DNA from: a virus
Lineage: Duplodnaviria; Heunggongvirae; Uroviricota; Caudoviricetes
Direction: 5' to 3' (one strand)
Length of the DNA stretch: 6,432 nt
IMG/VR virus record: IMGVR_UViG_2526164634_000019
The notes under the pieces are model-generated. The model did no database searches, was not told the origin of the DNA, and saw nothing but the letters and a program-made list of their open reading frames with translations. Positions 1-6,432 of the stretch are shown here, in pieces. Every line of letters begins with the position of its first letter. Positions within the stretch are counted from its first letter, which is position 1. The translations under genes and the position numbers were made by a program.

Positions 1-1
1 T

Positions 2-1461
2 GTCACCTGCCCGTCAAAATACCACGCCACAACAGAGAACGGTCATCCGAATCCCAAATGGAACGGGGCCACCATGCGCGACTCCAGCGATTACCTGGTT
101 AACACGTTTTTTGCGGCTGTCCGCAAAAAACTGAACCGCGACGGTCTGCGCTGGTATGGCATCCGCACGGTGGAGCCTCACCATGACGGCACCGTGCACT
201 GGCATATGATGGTCTTTGCTCATCCGGAAGAAATCGACACCATTGTGTCCCACACCCGCGATATTGCCATTCAGGAAGACCGCCACGAGCTGGGCGATGA
301 CATAACTCCGCGCTTTAAGGCGGAGTACGTCGACGGCTCAAAAGGCACACCAACCAGCTACATCGCCACCTACATCGGAAGAACCTGGACAGCCACGCCG
401 TGGATGGCATCGACCCGAAAACGGGCAAGCCACGCGTTGACCACGAAACCGGAAAATCAATGGCCGAGAGCGTGGAGCGCGCCATCGGCTGGGCGCGCCT
501 TCACCGGGTCCGCCAGTTCCAGTTCTTTGGCATCCCCTCCCGTCAGGTGTGGCGTGAACTGCGCCGCCTTGCCAGCCAGATGGCACGCAACCCGGAAGGC
601 CCGCAACGACTGAAGGACGACGCAATGGATGCGGTACTCGCTGCCGCTGATGCCGGGTGTTTTGCCTCCTACATTGAAAAACAGGGTGGCGTACTTGTTC
701 CACGCAAAGACTACCTGATTCGCACCGCCTACGACCTCGCAGATGAGCTGAACGATTACGGCGAACAGAGCGTACAGATTTACGGGATCTGGTCACCACT
801 CATCGGGGAGTCCTCCCGTGTGTGCACGCATCCGGATAACTGGAAGCTGGTAAGACGTAAACCGGAAGCGGAAGACAGCGCCCGCGAAAATGGTTTTGAC
901 CTTCAGGGCGGCCCTGCCGCCCCTTGGACTCGTGGCAATAACTGTCCCCGTGTACAGGAAACAGGCAACAACGGGACAGAACAGCCGGAAGAACGGCCAG
1001 CACCGTGGCCGCAGCTTCCTGACGGCGTTGAAGTAAATGAATGGATGCGCTCACTGAAACGGCACGAACGCCGGGCGCTGATGCGTTCGCTTCGTGACAA
1101 ACAGGCAAAAAACAGCAGCGATGAAATGCAGAACTGGACACAGAGCCGCAAACAGCAGCGGCCTTTGCCTGATAACCACGAGTTACTCGCTAAAGAATGG
1201 CGGGAGTCTGCTGAATCTCTCGGCCTGCATATCGGTGAACAACAGATGCAGCACCTGTTACGGGGCGGCAGCCTGTACGTTGACGGCAGCATCATTGCAC
1301 CGCAGGGATTTGAAATTGTACGCAAACCGGATACCCGCCCGGACAGCCGAATCACGCAGCTCTGGCAGCGTCTGAGCCGTAATCATGGCGTAAGCAGCAC
1401 GGAGATCCGCCATAACCCGGTCGCCAGCTATCTGGCACAGCTGGGGGCGATCAGACCCTGA
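2..1461 (+). pseudogene. HUH rolling-circle replication endonuclease (phage P2 gpA family); 5' end outside window; apparent 1-bp frameshift near 377-381
   Basis: Frame 2 is open from the window edge and gives ...TCPSKYHATTENGHP...GIRTVEPHHDGTVHWHMMVF (HUH motif HWH) ...GTPTSYIATYIG (paired catalytic Tyr, YxxxY). At GGAAG (377-381) this frame becomes low-complexity Ala/Ser/Arg-rich and stops at 613. Frame 1, closed by a TAA at 316-318, takes over at 379 with protein-like KNLDSHAVDGIDPKTGKPRVDHETGK... and runs to TGA at 1459-1461. Restoring one A (GGAAAG) would give a continuous YIATYIGKNLDS, analogous to phiX174 gpA YVAKYVNKK. ORF track pieces are 74..613 and 400..1461. Confidence 0.75.
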
Positions 1462-1507
1462 AGCCGCCGCACGCCTGGCATCCACACTTCAGCAGGACCA
1501 GAACACC

Positions 1508-1711
1508 ATGAAAACACCCGTTACCGTGCTTTCTGACATGCTGCGCGCCATCCGCGACGCAGAGCACGCACAGAGAATCAGTGAAACCACTGAACGCGCC
1601 AGCCGCAAAGCAGACCTGCTGCGGGGTGGCCTGACCAGTGGAAACAAAAAACAGACAGAAACGGGACTCACGAATCCCGTAAATGAGCAAAAAACGCGCA
1701 GTGATATATGA
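1508..1711 (+). CDS. hypothetical small protein (67 aa), basic/hydrophilic, downstream of gene A
   Basis: ATG at 1508 with a weak AGGA 12 nt upstream. Occupies the position of small ORFs that follow A in P2-like phages. Its 3' end overlaps the first palindromic site. No recognisable domain; could be non-coding. Confidence 0.3.
   Translation: MKTPVTVLSDMLRAIRDAEHAQRISETTERASRKADLLRGGLTSGNKKQTETGLTNPVNEQKTRSDI
1661..1680. promoter_or_regulatory. 20-bp palindromic operator-like site ACGGGACT-CACG-AATCCCGT (one mismatch)
   Basis: Inverted repeat read directly: 8-bp arms separated by 4 bp. Near-identical to the site at 1734-1753 and 73 bp (about 7 helical turns) away from it. Confidence 0.5.
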
Positions 1712-1733
1712 AGCGCGCACAAAACAGGCAAAA

Positions 1734-1753
1734 ACGGGATTTCAGAATCCCGT
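1734..1753. promoter_or_regulatory. 20-bp perfect palindromic operator-like site ACGGGATT-TCAG-AATCCCGT overlapping the putative stbA promoter
   Basis: Perfect 8-bp inverted arms with 4-bp spacer, 35 bp upstream of the stbA ATG. Flanked by a possible -35 TTCAGA and an AT-rich -10 (TAATTAAT). Candidate binding site for the StbB/ParR-like protein (autoregulation or centromere) or for another repressor. Confidence 0.5.
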
Positions 1754-1787
1754 AAACGATTAATTAATCAACATAAGGAAAATCGAC

Positions 1788-2747
1788 ATGAAAATTTGTA
1801 TCGACGACGGCTCCACCAACATCAAGCTGGCATGGACTGAGAACGGCGAACGCCGCAACGCCATCAGCCCGAACAGCTTCAAGTCGGAATGGTCTGCGCC
1901 GTTCGGTGGCACGCAGCCCGCGAACTACATGCTTGATGGCGTGCGCTATGGTTTTGATCCGGTCAGCGATCGCTTTGTCCAGACGACCGACACGCAATAC
2001 CAGTACAGCGATGTGAATGTCATTGCCATTCATCACGCGCTGGTCAAATCAGGCATCACACCACAGGAGGTGGATGTGGTTGTCACCCTGCCACTGAGCG
2101 AGTATTTCGACACAAACGCACAGCCGGACATGGCCAACATCAACCGCAAAAAAGCGAACGTTATGCGCCCGGTGGAATACCAGAACGGCGAAGCATTCAC
2201 TATCCGTAATGTACGGGTTATGCCTGAATCCATTCCGGCTGGCTTTAAAGCACTGGCTGACATGAGTCCGTTTGAATCCCTGCTGATTGTGGATTTAGGT
2301 GGAACCACGCTGGATGTGGCAAAGGTTCAGGGACAACTGGCAGGTATCAGCCAGGTGTTTTGCGATCCACACGTAGGCGTTTCCCTGATGGCCGATGCAG
2401 TACTGTCGGTGATGGCCACTAACGGTATGCGTACCAGTCACCACATCGCCAATACCATTATCGAACATCGCCATGATGAAGCCTGGCTGCGCCAGCACAT
2501 CCACAATGACGCGCATTACGCCAGCCTGATGGCGGTTATTCGTGAAAAGGAAGAAACACTGAAACAACGCGTGATCCGCGCGCTGGCGGGTTTTTCGGGT
2601 TACGGGCGGGTGATGCTTGTCGGTGGAGGGGCGGAGATTGTGGCACCCGCTATCCGCGAAGTCTGCGGAGTTAATGCGACTTTCATCGCGGACGGGGTGC
2701 CACAGTTTGCTCTGGTTAATGGGCTGTACGCAATGGACAAGGAGTAA
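1788..2747 (+). CDS. stbA: actin-like ATPase of type II plasmid partition systems (StbA/ParM family)
   Basis: 319-aa ORF with SD AAGGA 8 nt upstream of the ATG. N-terminus MKICIDDGSTNIKLAW and motifs VMPESIPAG, LIVDLGGTTLD, VMLVGGGAE, LVNG match the actin-fold phosphate/adenosine motifs and my recollection of R100 StbA (MLVFIDDGSTNIKLQW...). Not verified by database search. Confidence 0.85.
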   Translation: MKICIDDGSTNIKLAWTENGERRNAISPNSFKSEWSAPFGGTQPANYMLDGVRYGFDPVSDRFVQTTDTQYQYSDVNVIAIHHALVKSGITPQEVDVVVTLPLSEYFDTNAQPDMANINRKKANVMRPVEYQNGEAFTIRNVRVMPESIPAGFKALADMSPFESLLIVDLGGTTLDVAKVQGQLAGISQVFCDPHVGVSLMADAVLSVMATNGMRTSHHIANTIIEHRHDEAWLRQHIHNDAHYASLMAVIREKEETLKQRVIRALAGFSGYGRVMLVGGGAEIVAPAIREVCGVNATFIADGVPQFALVNGLYAMDKE

Positions 2748-2751
2748 ACCA

Positions 2752-3066
2752 ATGACGACACCAACCAGACGGATAAGTTTCTATCTGAAGCCCGCCGCCG
2801 TCAAGAGTGAACAGGAGGCGTGCAATTACCTCGATAGCCTGCCAGCCTCCGAACGCAGCCGCGCGCAACGCGCGGCCTTTCTGGCTGGGCTAGCGCTCAT
2901 AAAGCGCAACCCAGCATTTACCTACTGGATGGCCGAATGGCCAGAGGACAACCTCCCCTTCAATACCGTTAGCATCAAGGAAACATACCAGGATAATCAG
3001 CCTAGCGGAGTTGAATGCAATTTTTATAAAATAAAAAAGAATATTCAGACCTTATTCCCAGAATAA
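2752..3066 (+). CDS. stbB: StbB/ParR-like partition adaptor (likely ribbon-helix-helix DNA-binding protein), 104 aa
   Basis: ATG at 2752 preceded by SD AAGGAG (2739-2744), 4 bp after the stbA stop, so translationally coupled. The track ORF 2617..3066 uses an unlikely TTG start inside stbA. Sequence MTTPTRRISFYLKPAAV...SLPASERSRAQRAAFLAGLALIK resembles StbB/ParR N-terminal regions as I recall them. The last 25 or so codons lie in AT-rich DNA. Confidence 0.75.
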   Translation: MTTPTRRISFYLKPAAVKSEQEACNYLDSLPASERSRAQRAAFLAGLALIKRNPAFTYWMAEWPEDNLPFNTVSIKETYQDNQPSGVECNFYKIKKNIQTLFPE

Positions 3067-3114
3067 TCTGATAATTGTATGTGAACTAATAAAATACAGA
3101 CCAACACATCATTC

Positions 3115-3139
3115 TGGCACCCTTGCTAACAGGGTGCCA
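3115..3139. terminator. hairpin between convergent genes (9-bp stem TGGCACCCT/AGGGTGCCA, 7-nt loop), probable bidirectional terminator
   Basis: Perfect inverted repeat read directly, followed on the plus strand by TGTTTC. Located 49 bp after the stbB stop and 10 bp after the stop of the minus-strand gene ending at 3150. Confidence 0.5.
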
Positions 3140-3149
3140 ATGTTTCAAA

Positions 3150-3992
3150 TCATGATGAAATTGCCGAAGTTTTTTTATCGTGCTGAAGTACCGCAAATGC
3201 CATTAAAACCTCAAGAGAATAGCGGCGATAATACTTAACAAAACCATAATAAAATACTCGGGATGCAGCAATACAAAACAAGAGAAGAAAACAAAAAGGT
3301 AACAGTCTGATATTTATATCTATTAAAAAGGATAGAAGGAGCAGGAACATAAGCAACCAGACTGAAGCGAGAAAAACAAATGTAATGTTTCTACAAAAAC
3401 CATACAAAGCAACATAGTTTTGCATTTTCACCTGATGATTTTTAGAATGTTCATACACATAATGATAAGCAAGGCGAAAAAGATCGCCCCTCAAGCCCTT
3501 ACGTCGATATAGCGTAGATACAGAAAAAACATTTATATAACCATCTCGTATTTGCGGCCAAAAGACTTTAATAAGTATAGAATGCAGTGTGGTTTTATGA
3601 TGTTCTGCTTTATCAAAAGCTGATACAGGAAATAAAAAAACTCCACGAATAAAATTAACTATACTGAACTTAGTATTATGTCGTTTTATTTTCAGGGAGC
3701 TTCTTTTAGAAAACAGATAAATTGAAGGATACCCAAGTTTACTGTTCATGTATTTTTCAATTAAACAGGATGATAGAATAGATATGAAGTGACCTGAAAT
3801 ATATGATAGAACGATTAATACCACATATATAAATACACTTATTATTTCTTTATATTTCAGGATATGGTTAAGAATACCTTCTATATAAACAGGGTTAATT
3901 TCAATAGAAAACAAAAAAAGGATAAACAGGAATAACCCACCTGGAATTAGATAGCCCAAAAAGTCATAAAATGAAAACGGATTCTGTGTCAC
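3150..3992 (-). CDS. hypothetical polytopic membrane protein (280 aa; about 4 predicted TM helices flanking a roughly 125-aa basic central domain)
   Basis: Long minus-strand ORF in AT-rich DNA with a GTG start at 3992 preceded by SD-like AGGGGGAA. Strongly hydrophobic segments at roughly aa 9-29, 49-73, 205-227 and 233-255. Starts 39 bp downstream of the preceding gene stop, so it looks operonic. No recognisable catalytic motif by eye. Confidence 0.7.
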   Translation of the reverse strand: MTQNPFSFYDFLGYLIPGGLFLFILFLFSIEINPVYIEGILNHILKYKEIISVFIYVVLIVLSYISGHFISILSSCLIEKYMNSKLGYPSIYLFSKRSSLKIKRHNTKFSIVNFIRGVFLFPVSAFDKAEHHKTTLHSILIKVFWPQIRDGYINVFSVSTLYRRKGLRGDLFRLAYHYVYEHSKNHQVKMQNYVALYGFCRNITFVFLASVWLLMFLLLLSFLIDINIRLLPFCFLLLFCIAASRVFYYGFVKYYRRYSLEVLMAFAVLQHDKKTSAISS

Positions 3993-4031
3993 ACTTCCCC
4001 CTGTGTTACTTGTAAATTAAAGGGTAAAACA

Positions 4032-4529
4032 TTATTTGTTTTTCCGTAAAGGATTAGCTTTCCATCTTCTTACTAACCATTCGAATTCTTGATATGTAGT
4101 ATCCGAATTAATGCTTTCTCTGATTGCTTTAATTAATGGCTCGGCAATATCATATGTCTCTACAACTGTTGTGTAAGATGTTCTTTTTATCATTTTTTCA
4201 TCATAAATACCTTCACGAATACTTACAGCAACTCGCTCGTAAAAATTTAAAATATATTGAAATTTTCGACGCTCGGCCATTTCTTCATCTGTTATTATGC
4301 AACCATCACAAGGAAAAACATAAGAACGAAATGATTTGCCTGAACGATGCACTTGTTTCAGGGTATGCAATGACTCTATATATTGCATATCTTGCCGACT
4401 CTCAAAAAGAAAGTTGGCCGTTTGAGTTTTTTTTGCGGTACGCACATTGTAGATAATGGTTCCAATGGCAACCAAAACGCCAAGCAGAACAATAGCATTG
4501 CTGATGATTTGTAGTGTTATTGGGTTCAT
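4032..4529 (-). CDS. hypothetical single-pass membrane protein (165 aa; N-terminal TM helix plus about 135-aa soluble domain)
   Basis: ATG at 4529. N-terminal ITLQIISNAIVLLGVLVAIGTIIY is a clear TM/signal-anchor segment, followed by a charged soluble domain. AT-rich and co-oriented with the downstream polytopic membrane protein gene. Confidence 0.7.
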   Translation of the reverse strand: MNPITLQIISNAIVLLGVLVAIGTIIYNVRTAKKTQTANFLFESRQDMQYIESLHTLKQVHRSGKSFRSYVFPCDGCIITDEEMAERRKFQYILNFYERVAVSIREGIYDEKMIKRTSYTTVVETYDIAEPLIKAIRESINSDTTYQEFEWLVRRWKANPLRKNK

Positions 4530-4549
4530 CCTATTTCATCCATAAAAAA

Positions 4550-4570
4550 GGCGGGGAGCAAATCCCCGCC
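4550..4570 (-). terminator. intrinsic-terminator-like hairpin (8-bp GC-rich stem GGCGGGGA/TCCCCGCC, 5-nt loop) followed on the minus strand by T6
   Basis: Read directly. On the minus strand the hairpin is followed by TTTTTT (plus 4544-4549) and lies only about 14 nt upstream of the ATG at 4529, which leaves no room for a promoter between terminator and gene. Confidence 0.55.
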
Positions 4571-4590
4571 TCATTAGAGGTCAACGTAGC

Positions 4591-4626
4591 TTAGAAACCA
4601 TCAAATTCATCATACATTTTTTTCAT
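4591..4626 (-). other. candidate 11-codon leader ORF (MKKMYDEFDGF) with strong SD, upstream of the terminator hairpin
   Basis: Minus-strand ATG at 4626-4624 preceded by GAGGGGG with a 5-nt spacer; stop TAA at 4593-4591, 20 nt before the hairpin. The arrangement promoter, leader ORF, terminator, structural genes resembles an attenuator. Could be coincidental. Confidence 0.25.
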
Positions 4627-4678
4627 ATCAACCCCCTCATAGAAATCATAACCACGTTTTGTGGTTTTTGTGACGTAT

Positions 4679-4707
4679 AAACTACATCAAAGGCAAGCCA
4701 CGGTCAA
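4679..4707 (-). promoter_or_regulatory. candidate sigma70 promoter for the leader and membrane-protein operon (-35 TTGACC, 17-bp spacer, -10 TAGTTT)
   Basis: Minus-strand TTGACC (plus 4707-4702) and TAGTTT (plus 4684-4679) with a 17-bp spacer; the -10 keeps the conserved T1, A2, T6. Predicted from sequence only. Confidence 0.35.
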
Positions 4708-4726
4708 ATATATAGGCATGCTTACC

Positions 4727-4756
4727 TGCACAAAAGTGCACAAATTTGCACAATTT
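4727..4756. repeat. three tandem 10-bp direct repeats TGCACAA(A)nn at the right edge of the AT-rich island
   Basis: TGCACAAAAG / TGCACAAATT / TGCACAATTT in helical phase, read directly. The middle copy contains the palindrome GTGCAC. Confidence 0.5.
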
Positions 4757-5127
4757 TTTTGAACGACTTTTTACCCTTCCGGCCCGCATGGCGGCTGGAT
4801 CCGTCAAGGATCCGTGCGTGCACAAAAAAACGCGCTTTTTCTGCGCGCAGGTGACGGGGGAACAGCCCGCGTTTCAGGGGGTAAATAGCATTCCCTGAAC
4901 GATGTCGCAGAGATAGAACAGAATGGCTGTATTTCTCACGCTGAGCGTGAAAAAGACGTGAGGGCTTTTGATTTGATGGGGTGAAAGGTAAGGCCGTCAA
5001 AATCGCACTGAGACGGCGAGAACATGCAGTCAACGCGGTGGGATTGCGTAAGAGTCTGACTGTCGATGATGGCAATCAGCAGGAAAGCGTCGTGAAATTA
5101 TCTGACTGATACAGGAGCTGGAGAGTC

Positions 5128-5150
5128 GGGGCATAAATTTTTTATGCCCC
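5128..5150. terminator. inverted repeat GGGGCATAAA-TTT-TTTATGCCCC, 28 bp downstream of the portal gene stop
   Basis: 10-bp stem with 3-nt loop read directly. No flanking U-tract on either strand, so it may be a terminator for the leftward late operon or a protein-binding or packaging site. Confidence 0.4.
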
Positions 5151-5177
5151 GGCGAAGCAGCAGACAAGCGAAGCGCG

Positions 5178-5747
5178 TCAGGATGTGGGCTGGGTGTCTA
5201 ACAGTGCGTAAGGGTTAAAGCGGATCACCTCTTCGCCAAGCCAGTCATTGATGTGCTTCATGGCCTCCATGACGGGCATCAGCTCGTTAATTGCGTAAAC
5301 CCGCGCGGCCTTCTCCACATCACCAAACGCACTTTTTTCGCCCGGCATCGCCCCCATCAGTTGCGGCGGAACGCGGTGCGCAGCCAGCACATCATCACGG
5401 GATGCCGCCTTAACATTCATGAACTCATCCTTTGCGGTGATCTGCTGGAACGGCAAAATTTGCACCCCTTCTTTGCCCCCGTTGGGCGCATGAATGAGCA
5501 CGTTTTTAAATGCACCACCACCACGCGCACCCTGTAACGTTTCTTTCAGGGAGTCCATGCTTTCGCGGTTTACCTGCGCTGCACCGATGTAGATGATGCA
5601 CCCGGCGTGGGATCCGTTGTCGTAGTACAGTTTTCTGAACATGTCCGCCGAATGAGAAAGGCTGGCCGAGAGTAATGCGCCAAGATATTCCGGCATGCCG
5701 TAGATTTCCTGGTTAATATCCGGATTCATCAGGTGGCACACTTTGCC
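5178..5747 (-). CDS. phage portal protein (P2 gpQ-like), C-terminal part only; 5' portion separated by IS10 insertion
   Basis: Minus-strand ORF ending at the stop at 5180-5178. Translation ...HRVPPQLMGAMPGEKSAFGDVEKAARVYAINEL...WLGEEVIRFNPYALLDT resembles the C-terminus of P2-family portal proteins (from memory). The frame runs straight into the IS10 terminal repeat at 5748 and hits a stop inside IS10 at 5760-5762, so the gene is interrupted. Confidence 0.7.
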   Translation of the reverse strand, partial: GKVCHLMNPDINQEIYGMPEYLGALLSASLSHSADMFRKLYYDNGSHAGCIIYIGAAQVNRESMDSLKETLQGARGGGAFKNVLIHAPNGGKEGVQILPFQQITAKDEFMNVKAASRDDVLAAHRVPPQLMGAMPGEKSAFGDVEKAARVYAINELMPVMEAMKHINDWLGEEVIRFNPYALLDTQPTS

Positions 5748-5770
5748 CTGATGAATCCCCTAATGATTTT
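5748..5770. repeat. IS10 outside-end terminal inverted repeat
   Basis: Exact match to the 23-bp IS10 outside end as remembered. Confidence 0.85.
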
Positions 5771-5793
5771 TATCAAAATCATTAAGTTAAGGT

Positions 5794-5862
5794 AGATACA
5801 CATCTTGTCATATGATCAAATGGTTTCGCCAAAAATCAATAATCAGACAACAAAATGTGCGA
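5794..5862 (-). ncRNA. IS10 RNA-OUT antisense RNA (predicted position)
   Basis: Placed from established IS10 biology: pOUT starts near element position 115 and RNA-OUT runs about 69 nt outward, overlapping the transposase start (RNA-IN). The Dam site GATC at 5814-5817 lies in the pIN region. Not verified independently. Confidence 0.4.
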
Positions 5863-6432
5863 ACTCGATATTTTACACGACTCTCTTTACCAATTCTGCC
5901 CCGAATTACACTTAAAACGACTCAACAGCTTAACGTTGGCTTGCCACGCCTTACTTGACTGTAAAACTCTCACTCTTACCGAACTTGGCCGTAACCTGCC
6001 AACCAAAGCGAGAACAAAACATAACATCAAACGAATCGACCGATTGTTAGGTAATCGTCACCTCCACAAAGAGCGACTCGCTGTATACCGTTGGCATGCT
6101 AGCTTTATCTGTTCGGGCAATACGATGCCCATTGTACTTGTTGACTGGTCTGATATCCGTGAGCAAAAACGGCTTATGGTATTGCGAGCTTCAGTCGCAC
6201 TACACGGTCGTTCTGTTACTCTTTATGAGAAAGCGTTCCCGCTTTCAGAGCAATGTTCAAAGAAAGCTCATGACCAATTTCTAGCCGACCTTGCGAGCAT
6301 TCTACCGAGTAACACCACACCGCTCATTGTCAGTGATGCTGGCTTTAAAGTGCCATGGTATAAATCCGTTGAGAAGCTGGGTTGGTACTGGTTAAGTCGA
6401 GTAAGAGGAAAAGTACAATATGCAGACCTAGG
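5855..6432 (+). CDS. IS10 transposase, N-terminal 192 codons; 3' end beyond window
   Basis: ATG at 5855; frame open to the window end. Translation MCELDILHDSLYQFCPELHLKRLNSLTLACHALLDCKTLTLTELGRNLPTKARTKHNIKRIDRLLGNRHLHKERLAVYRWHASF... matches IS10 transposase. Absent from the ORF track because no stop falls in the window. Confidence 0.9.
   Translation, partial: MCELDILHDSLYQFCPELHLKRLNSLTLACHALLDCKTLTLTELGRNLPTKARTKHNIKRIDRLLGNRHLHKERLAVYRWHASFICSGNTMPIVLVDWSDIREQKRLMVLRASVALHGRSVTLYEKAFPLSEQCSKKAHDQFLADLASILPSNTTPLIVSDAGFKVPWYKSVEKLGWYWLSRVRGKVQYADL

Follow-up and report, generated by a model that had tools for sequence, protein, structure and literature searches.

Type II (ParMRC) partition cassettes are known from the IncFII plasmids R1 and R100, where parM and parR are tightly coupled in that order and repeated sites lie directly upstream of parM. 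The subject here is a cassette of this type, a parM (stbA) and parR (stbB) pair, in the virus record IMGVR_UViG_2526164634_000019, a stretch of 6,432 nucleotides (hereafter the window) that is a piece of a defective, P88-like (Xuanwuvirus) prophage of the P2 family. Type II partition is also found in an integrating element, as the srpMRC genes of the SXT/R391 integrative conjugative elements (ICEs), whose excised circle is copied by a rolling-circle initiator/relaxase, lower the loss of the element and stabilize its excised form; SrpM and R1 ParM are no more than distant relatives (PMC4489591). The prophage CGP3 of Corynebacterium glutamicum carries an actin-like ATPase, AlpC, and a DNA-binding adaptor, AlpA, with sites (alpS) upstream of the operon, and both proteins are induced early and needed for efficient replication of the phage DNA (PMC4446434). 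The P1-like phage-plasmid D6, a true plasmid prophage of 91 kb, has a ParM followed by a small partition protein and an additional ParA-like gene.

Closest to the window are P88, phiSM (Citrobacter) and further Xuanwuvirus phages. The annotation of P88, phiSM and RefSeq records already reads "plasmid segregation protein ParM" and "partition protein", and about a quarter of P2-like phages was reported to carry the system, with plasmid maintenance as the speculated function (Rousset et al., 2022; PMC9122126). An earlier note on this DNA had observed the plasmid-type cassette beside replication gene A and had mainly taken it as a possible sign that the element, or an ancestor, was maintained as an episome; observation and interpretation are therefore already in print. 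What is found here is a real and ordinary ParMRC cassette, a known feature of P88-like prophages, and its role in an integrating phage is a modest question. The present analysis adds that the cassette belongs to the phage backbone rather than to the cargo, that its three parts appear to be under selection and that it is common to very distant P2-like phages.

The partition cassette compared with described systems

The cassette and its immediate surroundings consist of the following features.

1645–1686, plus strand: parC-like repeat 1, inside the 3' end of gene A, with the palindrome ACGGGACTCACGAATCCCGT at 1661–1680.
1718–1759, plus strand: parC-like repeat 2, in the spacer between gene A and parM, with the perfect 8+4+8 palindrome ACGGGATTTCAGAATCCCGT at 1734–1753.
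1788–2747, plus strand: parM (stbA), an actin-fold segregation ATPase of 319 aa, with Pfam, structure and alignment matches.
2752–3066, plus strand: parR (stbB), an adaptor of 104 aa with an N-terminal DNA-binding domain, a variable linker and the C-terminal tail KKNIQTLFPE.
3116–3138, no strand assigned: a GC-rich hairpin, GGCACCCT...AGGGTGCC, found by folding, between parR and a convergent cargo gene on the minus strand.

The earlier note had described a ParM/StbA and ParR/StbB pair at 1788–3066, and Pfam, the R1 structure and the R100 alignments all agree that the coordinates as well as the description are correct. Profile and structure searches identify the 319-aa protein as an actin-fold ATPase of the ParM/StbA family, with matches to Pfam StbA_N (PF06406; E = 1.8e-82), to the ParM C-terminal domain (PF21523; E = 3.7e-68) and to the solved structures of R1 ParM (1mwk; E = 3e-92). 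It is 46% identical to R100 ParM over 318 aa, i.e., over the full length, and shares the nucleotide-binding motifs of the R1/R100 proteins. All phosphate-binding and adenosine-binding motifs are kept, and ParM homologues found in a P2 context show no variation in the residues that bind the nucleotide (D6-D7-G8-S9-T10, E147, D169-L-G-G-T-T and G279-G-G-A).

The ParR protein matches Plasmid_stab_B (PF10784; E = 2.8e-28, residues 6–75) and, weakly, the structure of pB171 ParR (2jd3). Its N-terminal DNA-binding domain is 41% identical to that of R100 ParR (residues 6–63), and its tail KKNIQTLFPE aligns at the sequence level with the C-terminal KKNAMKLIN of the R100 protein, the two having K-K-N-x-x-x-L in common. 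A tail of the form (K/R)(K/Q)N-x-x-x-LFP is conserved in all P2-context ParRs. The window protein is shorter than R100 ParR, 104 as opposed to 116 aa, and most of the middle helix region is missing. As in R1 and R100 the two genes are closely coupled: the parM stop codon (TAA, 2745–2747) and the parR start codon (ATG, 2752) are separated by 4 nt without overlap, and the Shine-Dalgarno sequence of parR (GGAG, 2741–2744) lies inside the end of parM. Judged by sequence, the pair is a genuine type II (ParMRC) partition cassette.

The resemblance to the R1/R100 systems extends to the repeated sites directly upstream of parM, although their architecture differs. Two copies of a 42-nt direct repeat (1645–1686 and 1718–1759) lie 73 bp apart, and each contains a 20-bp palindrome with the arms ACGGGATT/AATCCCGT, whereas R100 parC is made of 5+5 direct 11-bp iterons. 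Also unlike the plasmid systems, the first window site is inside a coding region and no consensus promoter is found between the sites. The earlier note was right that a coupled pair directly follows gene A and that palindromes precede it. The first palindrome is, however, in the 3' end of gene A and not in the spacer, since the gene A stop codon is at 1709–1711, 76 nt ahead of parM. In the window the motif CGGGAYT-N4-AATCCCG matches these two sites and no others, compared to 0.01 matches expected by chance, and in a complete 34.5-kb genome of a related phage it is likewise confined to this locus. All of 83 related loci have the two palindromes, with conserved arms and a variable central 4 nt, and the layout of two sites upstream of parM recurs in relatives from Hafnia, Plesiomonas, Serratia and Enterobacter. 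The palindromes are plausible cis sites for ParR, i.e., a candidate parC.

It was also considered that satellites or other elements might borrow this centromere. Among the matches listed in a scan of viral contigs, paired sites 73 bp apart occurred only at ParM-carrying loci, which speaks against borrowing, while single motif matches elsewhere had unrelated flanks or were the shortened ends of P88-like contigs. Nor does anything point to the phage itself being a satellite-like replicon, as the earlier note had suggested among other possibilities; it is a full-size P2-like phage.

Selection was followed in 85 P88-type loci, mostly from IMG/VR, that were retrieved by similarity to parM. In all 85 parM is uninterrupted and encodes 319 aa, the mean pairwise dN/dS is 0.05, and 144 of the 200 polymorphic sites are at third codon positions. 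parM is thus under strong purifying selection. For ParR the ratio pN/pS within allele classes is 0.14–0.15 in the N-terminal domain, 0.5–0.64 in the linker and 0.04–0.17 in the last ten residues that make up the tail, so that ParR is constrained at its DNA-binding domain and tail and unconstrained in the linker. This agrees with the known layout of ParR proteins, in which a flexible linker joins the DNA-binding domain to a tail that binds ParM. Taken with the conserved palindromes, all three components of the cassette look constrained.

Compared to P88, phiSM and other Xuanwuvirus phages, the window has a ParM with 99% identity and shares the palindromes as well as the location behind gene A, but its prophage is defective and carries different downstream cargo, and its ParR is only 51% identical to that of P88 past residue 18. 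Two classes of ParR allele exist, with about 51% identity past this residue, and the allele of the window belongs to the rarer one. For most P88-type phages the DNA match to the window breaks 18 codons into parR (window positions 2806–3066), while parM is about 99% identical; the linker of ParR is hypervariable. Recombination that swaps the cargo of the neighboring hotspot may end inside parR.

Distribution of the cassette and its place in the phage genome

Of 5426 complete E. coli genomes, 1303 contain a parM with at least 95% DNA identity, which occupies 1441 places on chromosomes and 2 on plasmids, and parM is present in all 14 phage records with a P88-type gene A. Both P88 and a circular 34.5-kb relative encode a tyrosine integrase, C and cox, and the integrase together with the chromosomal location of 1441 of the 1443 E. 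coli copies makes the lifestyle of these phages integrative. The premise that such segregation genes are foreign to integrative P2-like phages is not supported by these counts. Beyond the P88 group, D6 is the only phage with a ParM homologue among 50,697 phage records; the D6 protein is 47.5% identical and falls among plasmid ParMs in the tree, outside the P2-phage clade. Since about a quarter of complete E. coli genomes carries this chromosomal-prophage cassette under strong purifying selection, its role for an integrating phage is of interest.

The cassette is located between gpA and the portal gene gpQ, and the gpA–gpQ interval is a known defense hotspot of P2 (PMC9122126). Such a position in a recombination hotspot, and the great predominance of plasmid genes among the homologues (more than 5000 plasmid records), could suggest cargo recently captured from a plasmid and functionless in the phage, which the earlier note had offered as an alternative. 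The nearest genuinely plasmid-borne ParM is, however, at most 52% identical, and the deeper relatives found by protein search are 53–62% identical. The GC content of parM (0.55) and parR (0.50) is close to that of gene A (0.58) and far from that of the cargo genes (0.32–0.35), parM having the value of the phage backbone. The stretch that separates parR from the portal gene differs in length among loci, from about 1 to 4.2 kb, while the cassette is constant and its presence fixed in P88-type phages. Strong purifying selection, intact reading frames and the clustering of the phage ParMs in a clade of their own (see below) also argue against recent capture, to which we give next to no probability. 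Constant presence, and a GC content that contrasts with the cargo, make the cassette the fixed left border of the gpA–gpQ hotspot rather than part of its variable content. The module is conserved backbone of P88-like P2-family phages.

When the contigs of the deeper ParM relatives from protein searches were inspected, the gene pair was seen to recur in distant P2-like prophages of Hafnia, Plesiomonas, Serratia and Enterobacter. In these the order is gpA, parM, parR, variable cargo and portal/terminase, with one or two small genes sometimes between gpA and parM and with portal and terminase on the opposite strand. Their proteins are 30–47% (portal), 35–43% (terminase), 29–55% (gpA) and 54–63% (ParM) identical to those of P88. 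In a neighbor-joining tree the ParMs of P88, Hafnia and Plesiomonas phages form one clade with a bootstrap support of 100/100, and this clade is joined to the Serratia/Enterobacter group at 40/100. A single origin of all P2-context ParMs, which the latter grouping would suggest, was not accepted at a support of only 40/100; one acquisition, two acquisitions or exchange among P2-like phages would all fit. The relationships of ParM and portal are incongruent, which means that the cassette is either slow-evolving within the family or has moved among P2-like phages. That it is kept at the same position across the family points to a phage-linked function rather than to chance cargo.

One ParMR-bearing P2-like element of Plesiomonas shigelloides (WEKF01000002.1, half of which was read) is on a contig of 32,167 bp that ends 142 nt past int. 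Its size and ends fit a separately assembled whole phage, and it could be an excised circle or result from an assembly break at att. Distant chromosomal ParMR pairs were found in Dickeya (locus L097, 9001–10373) beside TraG_N/TraU and an integrase, in an ICE-like setting, and in Mangrovibacter (locus L096, 9001–10361) beside Rep3, ParAB and anti-restriction genes, in what resembles an integrated plasmid. P2-like phages are therefore not the only integrated elements with type II partition genes. A contig labelled "Vagococcus sp.", a Gram-positive organism (NZ_JBQPOM010000071.1), has a parM that shares 97% identity with the gene of the E. coli phages and is most likely enterobacterial contamination or a mislabelled assembly.

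Possible roles in an integrating phage

The reading that we place first, though tentatively, is that the cassette is a functional ParMRC segregation module that segregates or positions the phage genome while this is transiently episomal, as a free circle replicated by gpA. The free circle is a likely substrate because the phage is integrative and because the cassette is at the distal end of the replication operon, near the probable origin, without a consensus promoter of its own; no sigma-70 consensus promoter was detected in 1400–1790 by a crude consensus scan. The cassette has the same orientation as the early/replication operon and directly follows its distal end, and in the stretches of P88 and its relatives that were examined no replication initiator other than gpA was annotated or called. 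The mechanism would be as follows. After infection or excision the genome would be present as a free circle, copied by gpA in rolling-circle replication from an origin probably about 0.8 kb upstream of the cassette. parMR would be expressed probably through read-through from the early operon. ParR dimers would bind the two 20-bp palindromes, one on either side of the gene A end, filaments of ATP-bound ParM would be captured by the conserved tail at the C-terminus of ParR, and the growing filaments would push the parC-bearing circles apart so that copies reach both cell halves, or both daughters, ahead of integration or lysis. The hairpin at 3116–3138 is likely to be the end of the parMR transcript; the fold of 3060–3150 has an energy of -19.7 kcal/mol (z = -2.1), although the hairpin was not called by a terminator scan and its T-run is weak.

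For such a role srpMRC is the best functional analogy. The P88 group likewise combines an integrase with an HUH initiator, gpA, but SXT/R391 elements are ICEs and not phages, and stabilization has been demonstrated for srpMRC while the phage cassette is known from sequence. If a transient free form is indeed partitioned, P2-like phages would join the SXT/R391 ICEs as elements that integrate and yet need plasmid-like inheritance, and this would have a bearing on the establishment of lysogeny and on prophage stability.

Several points weigh against partition of a transient free form, of which the promoter candidate, the layout of the sites and the outcome of the literature search also weaken the lytic and plasmid alternatives below. 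A weak promoter candidate, ATTTCA-18-ATTAAT, can be seen by eye to overlap palindrome 2 and would possibly allow expression of parMR in lysogens. The candidate centromere consists of two palindromes (four half-sites) and not of 5+5 iterons as in R100/R1 parC, so the sites could be mainly operator. The window prophage itself can neither replicate nor package, as gene A and the portal gene are broken (see below), and in this particular copy the cassette can have no such role. The literature on ParMR of P2-like phages, P88, Xuanwuvirus and CP-933T yielded annotation only and no functional study, and supplements to an O157:H7 proteome and a ciprofloxacin transcriptome do not list the prophage ParM and are uninformative on its expression. 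Finally, a cell committed to lysis has no obvious gain from heritable partition. This last point favors a role in the lytic cycle instead.

In the lytic alternative ParM, ParR and the palindromes would, like AlpAC, move or space replicating monomeric circles and thereby serve efficient gpA replication or packaging rather than inheritance. P2 packages monomeric circles. The location at the distal end of the early operon, beside gene A, suits this as well as it suits partition, the same being true of the missing consensus promoter, and P88 and phiSM are active phages that are inducible or spontaneously released (PMC6456863). The precedent of CGP3, where early induction and a requirement in phage replication go together, is in a Gram-positive host, with the adaptor gene first in the operon and an actin-like protein of a distant family; the ParM of the window has its close kin not in AlpC but among the partition ParMs of true plasmids. 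Moreover ParMR is absent from P2, 186 and most other P2-like phages, and these replicate and package well. We consider a lytic role somewhat unlikely, and it ranks second, after transient partition and before a true plasmid lifestyle.

A facultative phage-plasmid, replicated by gpA and partitioned by ParMRC at low copy number, e.g., in hosts without a free attachment site, is the possibility that comes closest to the earlier note. It could find support in a circular "plasmid" record of 34,461 bp that is a complete P88-like genome with a reconstituted int–ogr junction, in the Plesiomonas relative on its 32-kb contig ending 142 nt from int, in the homology to the ParM of the phage-plasmid D6 and in the speculation already published (PMC9122126). 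The circular record has kept its integrase, however, and may be mere excised phage DNA after spontaneous induction. Of the seven PLSDB matches the remaining six are very large replicons, copies that have been integrated or a linear fragment full of IS elements, and of the two plasmid places of parM in E. coli the one that was inspected is a prophage integrated beside its integrase in a 129-kb plasmid. P2-type gpA belongs to the lytic early operon, which is shut off by the immunity repressor. With gpA repressed in the lysogen, a quiescent plasmid state would be without an obvious replication drive. Neither extrachromosomal upkeep (1441 chromosomal as opposed to 2 plasmid places) nor plasmid-type replication without reliance on an integrase is seen in this group, in which the integrase is conserved. 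A stable plasmid state thus has hardly any backing in the database records, and we regard a facultative plasmid lifestyle as distinctly unlikely.

A related proposal is that of a carrier state, in which an unintegrated P88-like genome would be copied at low level by gpA and, over many divisions, actively partitioned by ParMRC or, in a weaker form, that ParMRC raises the frequency of lysogenization by serving both daughters before integration. It is unlikely in our judgement. If true, a widespread group of "integrative" coliphages would be conditional phage-plasmids.

The last alternative concerns regulation or competitors. ParR and its sites might be a transcriptional switch, or the system might interfere with related superinfecting phages or with ParMRC plasmids through incompatibility. 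The site between gpA and gpQ, within the P2 defense hotspot (PMC9122126), the presence of only two palindromic, operator-like sites, and the two diverged ParR allele classes with their recombination break 18 codons in could all be taken in this sense. However, a pure regulator would need no ParM at a dN/dS of 0.05 with all ATPase motifs, and the presence of the cassette is fixed, unlike that of the variable hotspot cargo. Cross-incompatibility with IncF plasmids is unlikely as the sites and ParR are far from the parC and ParR of R100. Taken together, a regulatory or competitor-directed role is very unlikely. A search for a defense-system identity of the cassette gave no PADLOC hit for either ParM or ParR, and this candidate was rejected.

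Defects and neighboring genes of the window prophage

The best DNA matches of the whole window are P88-like prophages on E. coli chromosomes, with about 98.6% identity over 1–5747; its phage matches are P88, phiSM and further Xuanwuvirus. Outside the cassette the window contains the following features.

1–1711, plus strand: 3' part of replication gene A (P2-type, HUH rolling-circle initiator), a pseudogene in the window.
904–953, no strand assigned: a conserved 50-bp island, the probable gpA nick site or origin, inside gene A.
3150–3992, minus strand: cargo gene for a 280-aa multi-pass membrane protein (PHROG 12528; weak PADLOC match to Csx27, E = 1e-5).
4032–4529, minus strand: cargo gene for a 165-aa DUF4760 protein (PF15956, E = 2e-34) with an apparent N-terminal transmembrane segment, judged from the translation.
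5178–5747, minus strand: 3' half of portal gene Q, the match to P88 ending at 5747.
5748–6432 (to the window end), strand not stated: end of an IS10 inserted in portal gene Q, 99.6% identical to the IS10 of R100.

Gene A is recognized by Pfam Phage_GPA on 74–613 (E = 1.8e-42) and by an open reading frame at 1508–1711, the last 67 codons, that matches the C-terminus of the 855-position gpA PHROG. Aligned with P88 it has a 1-bp deletion near 375–378 (-1) and a 1-bp insertion at 1449 (+1), so that the codons from about 380 to 1449 are out of phase and translation would end at 611–613. The deletion is shared by none of 51 scorable related loci and the insertion is carried by none of the commonest relatives, i.e., both frameshifts are private to the window. 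They leave the window prophage without its replication initiator and, together with the portal gene cut by IS10, make this copy of the prophage defective. A single end of the IS10 falls in the window, and RNA-OUT (Rfam) is found inside it at 5793–5862.

The origin of P2 is located within gene A. P2-like phages of Klebsiella, Salmonella, Yersinia and the Fels-2 type have A genes that otherwise show no DNA match to the window but share the 50-bp island at 904–953 at about 90% identity, and the island probably represents the origin or nick site of gpA.

The AT-rich arrangement of the two cargo genes, 3150–3992 and 4032–4529, is also present in 279 complete E. coli genomes, and they are a candidate exclusion or defense pair; the single paper found to mention DUF4760 is a survey of genomic islands. 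Between the cargo and the portal gene, where it would be expected, GGTGACGGGGGAACAGCCC at about 4850–4868 appears to resemble the P2 cohesive-end sequence.

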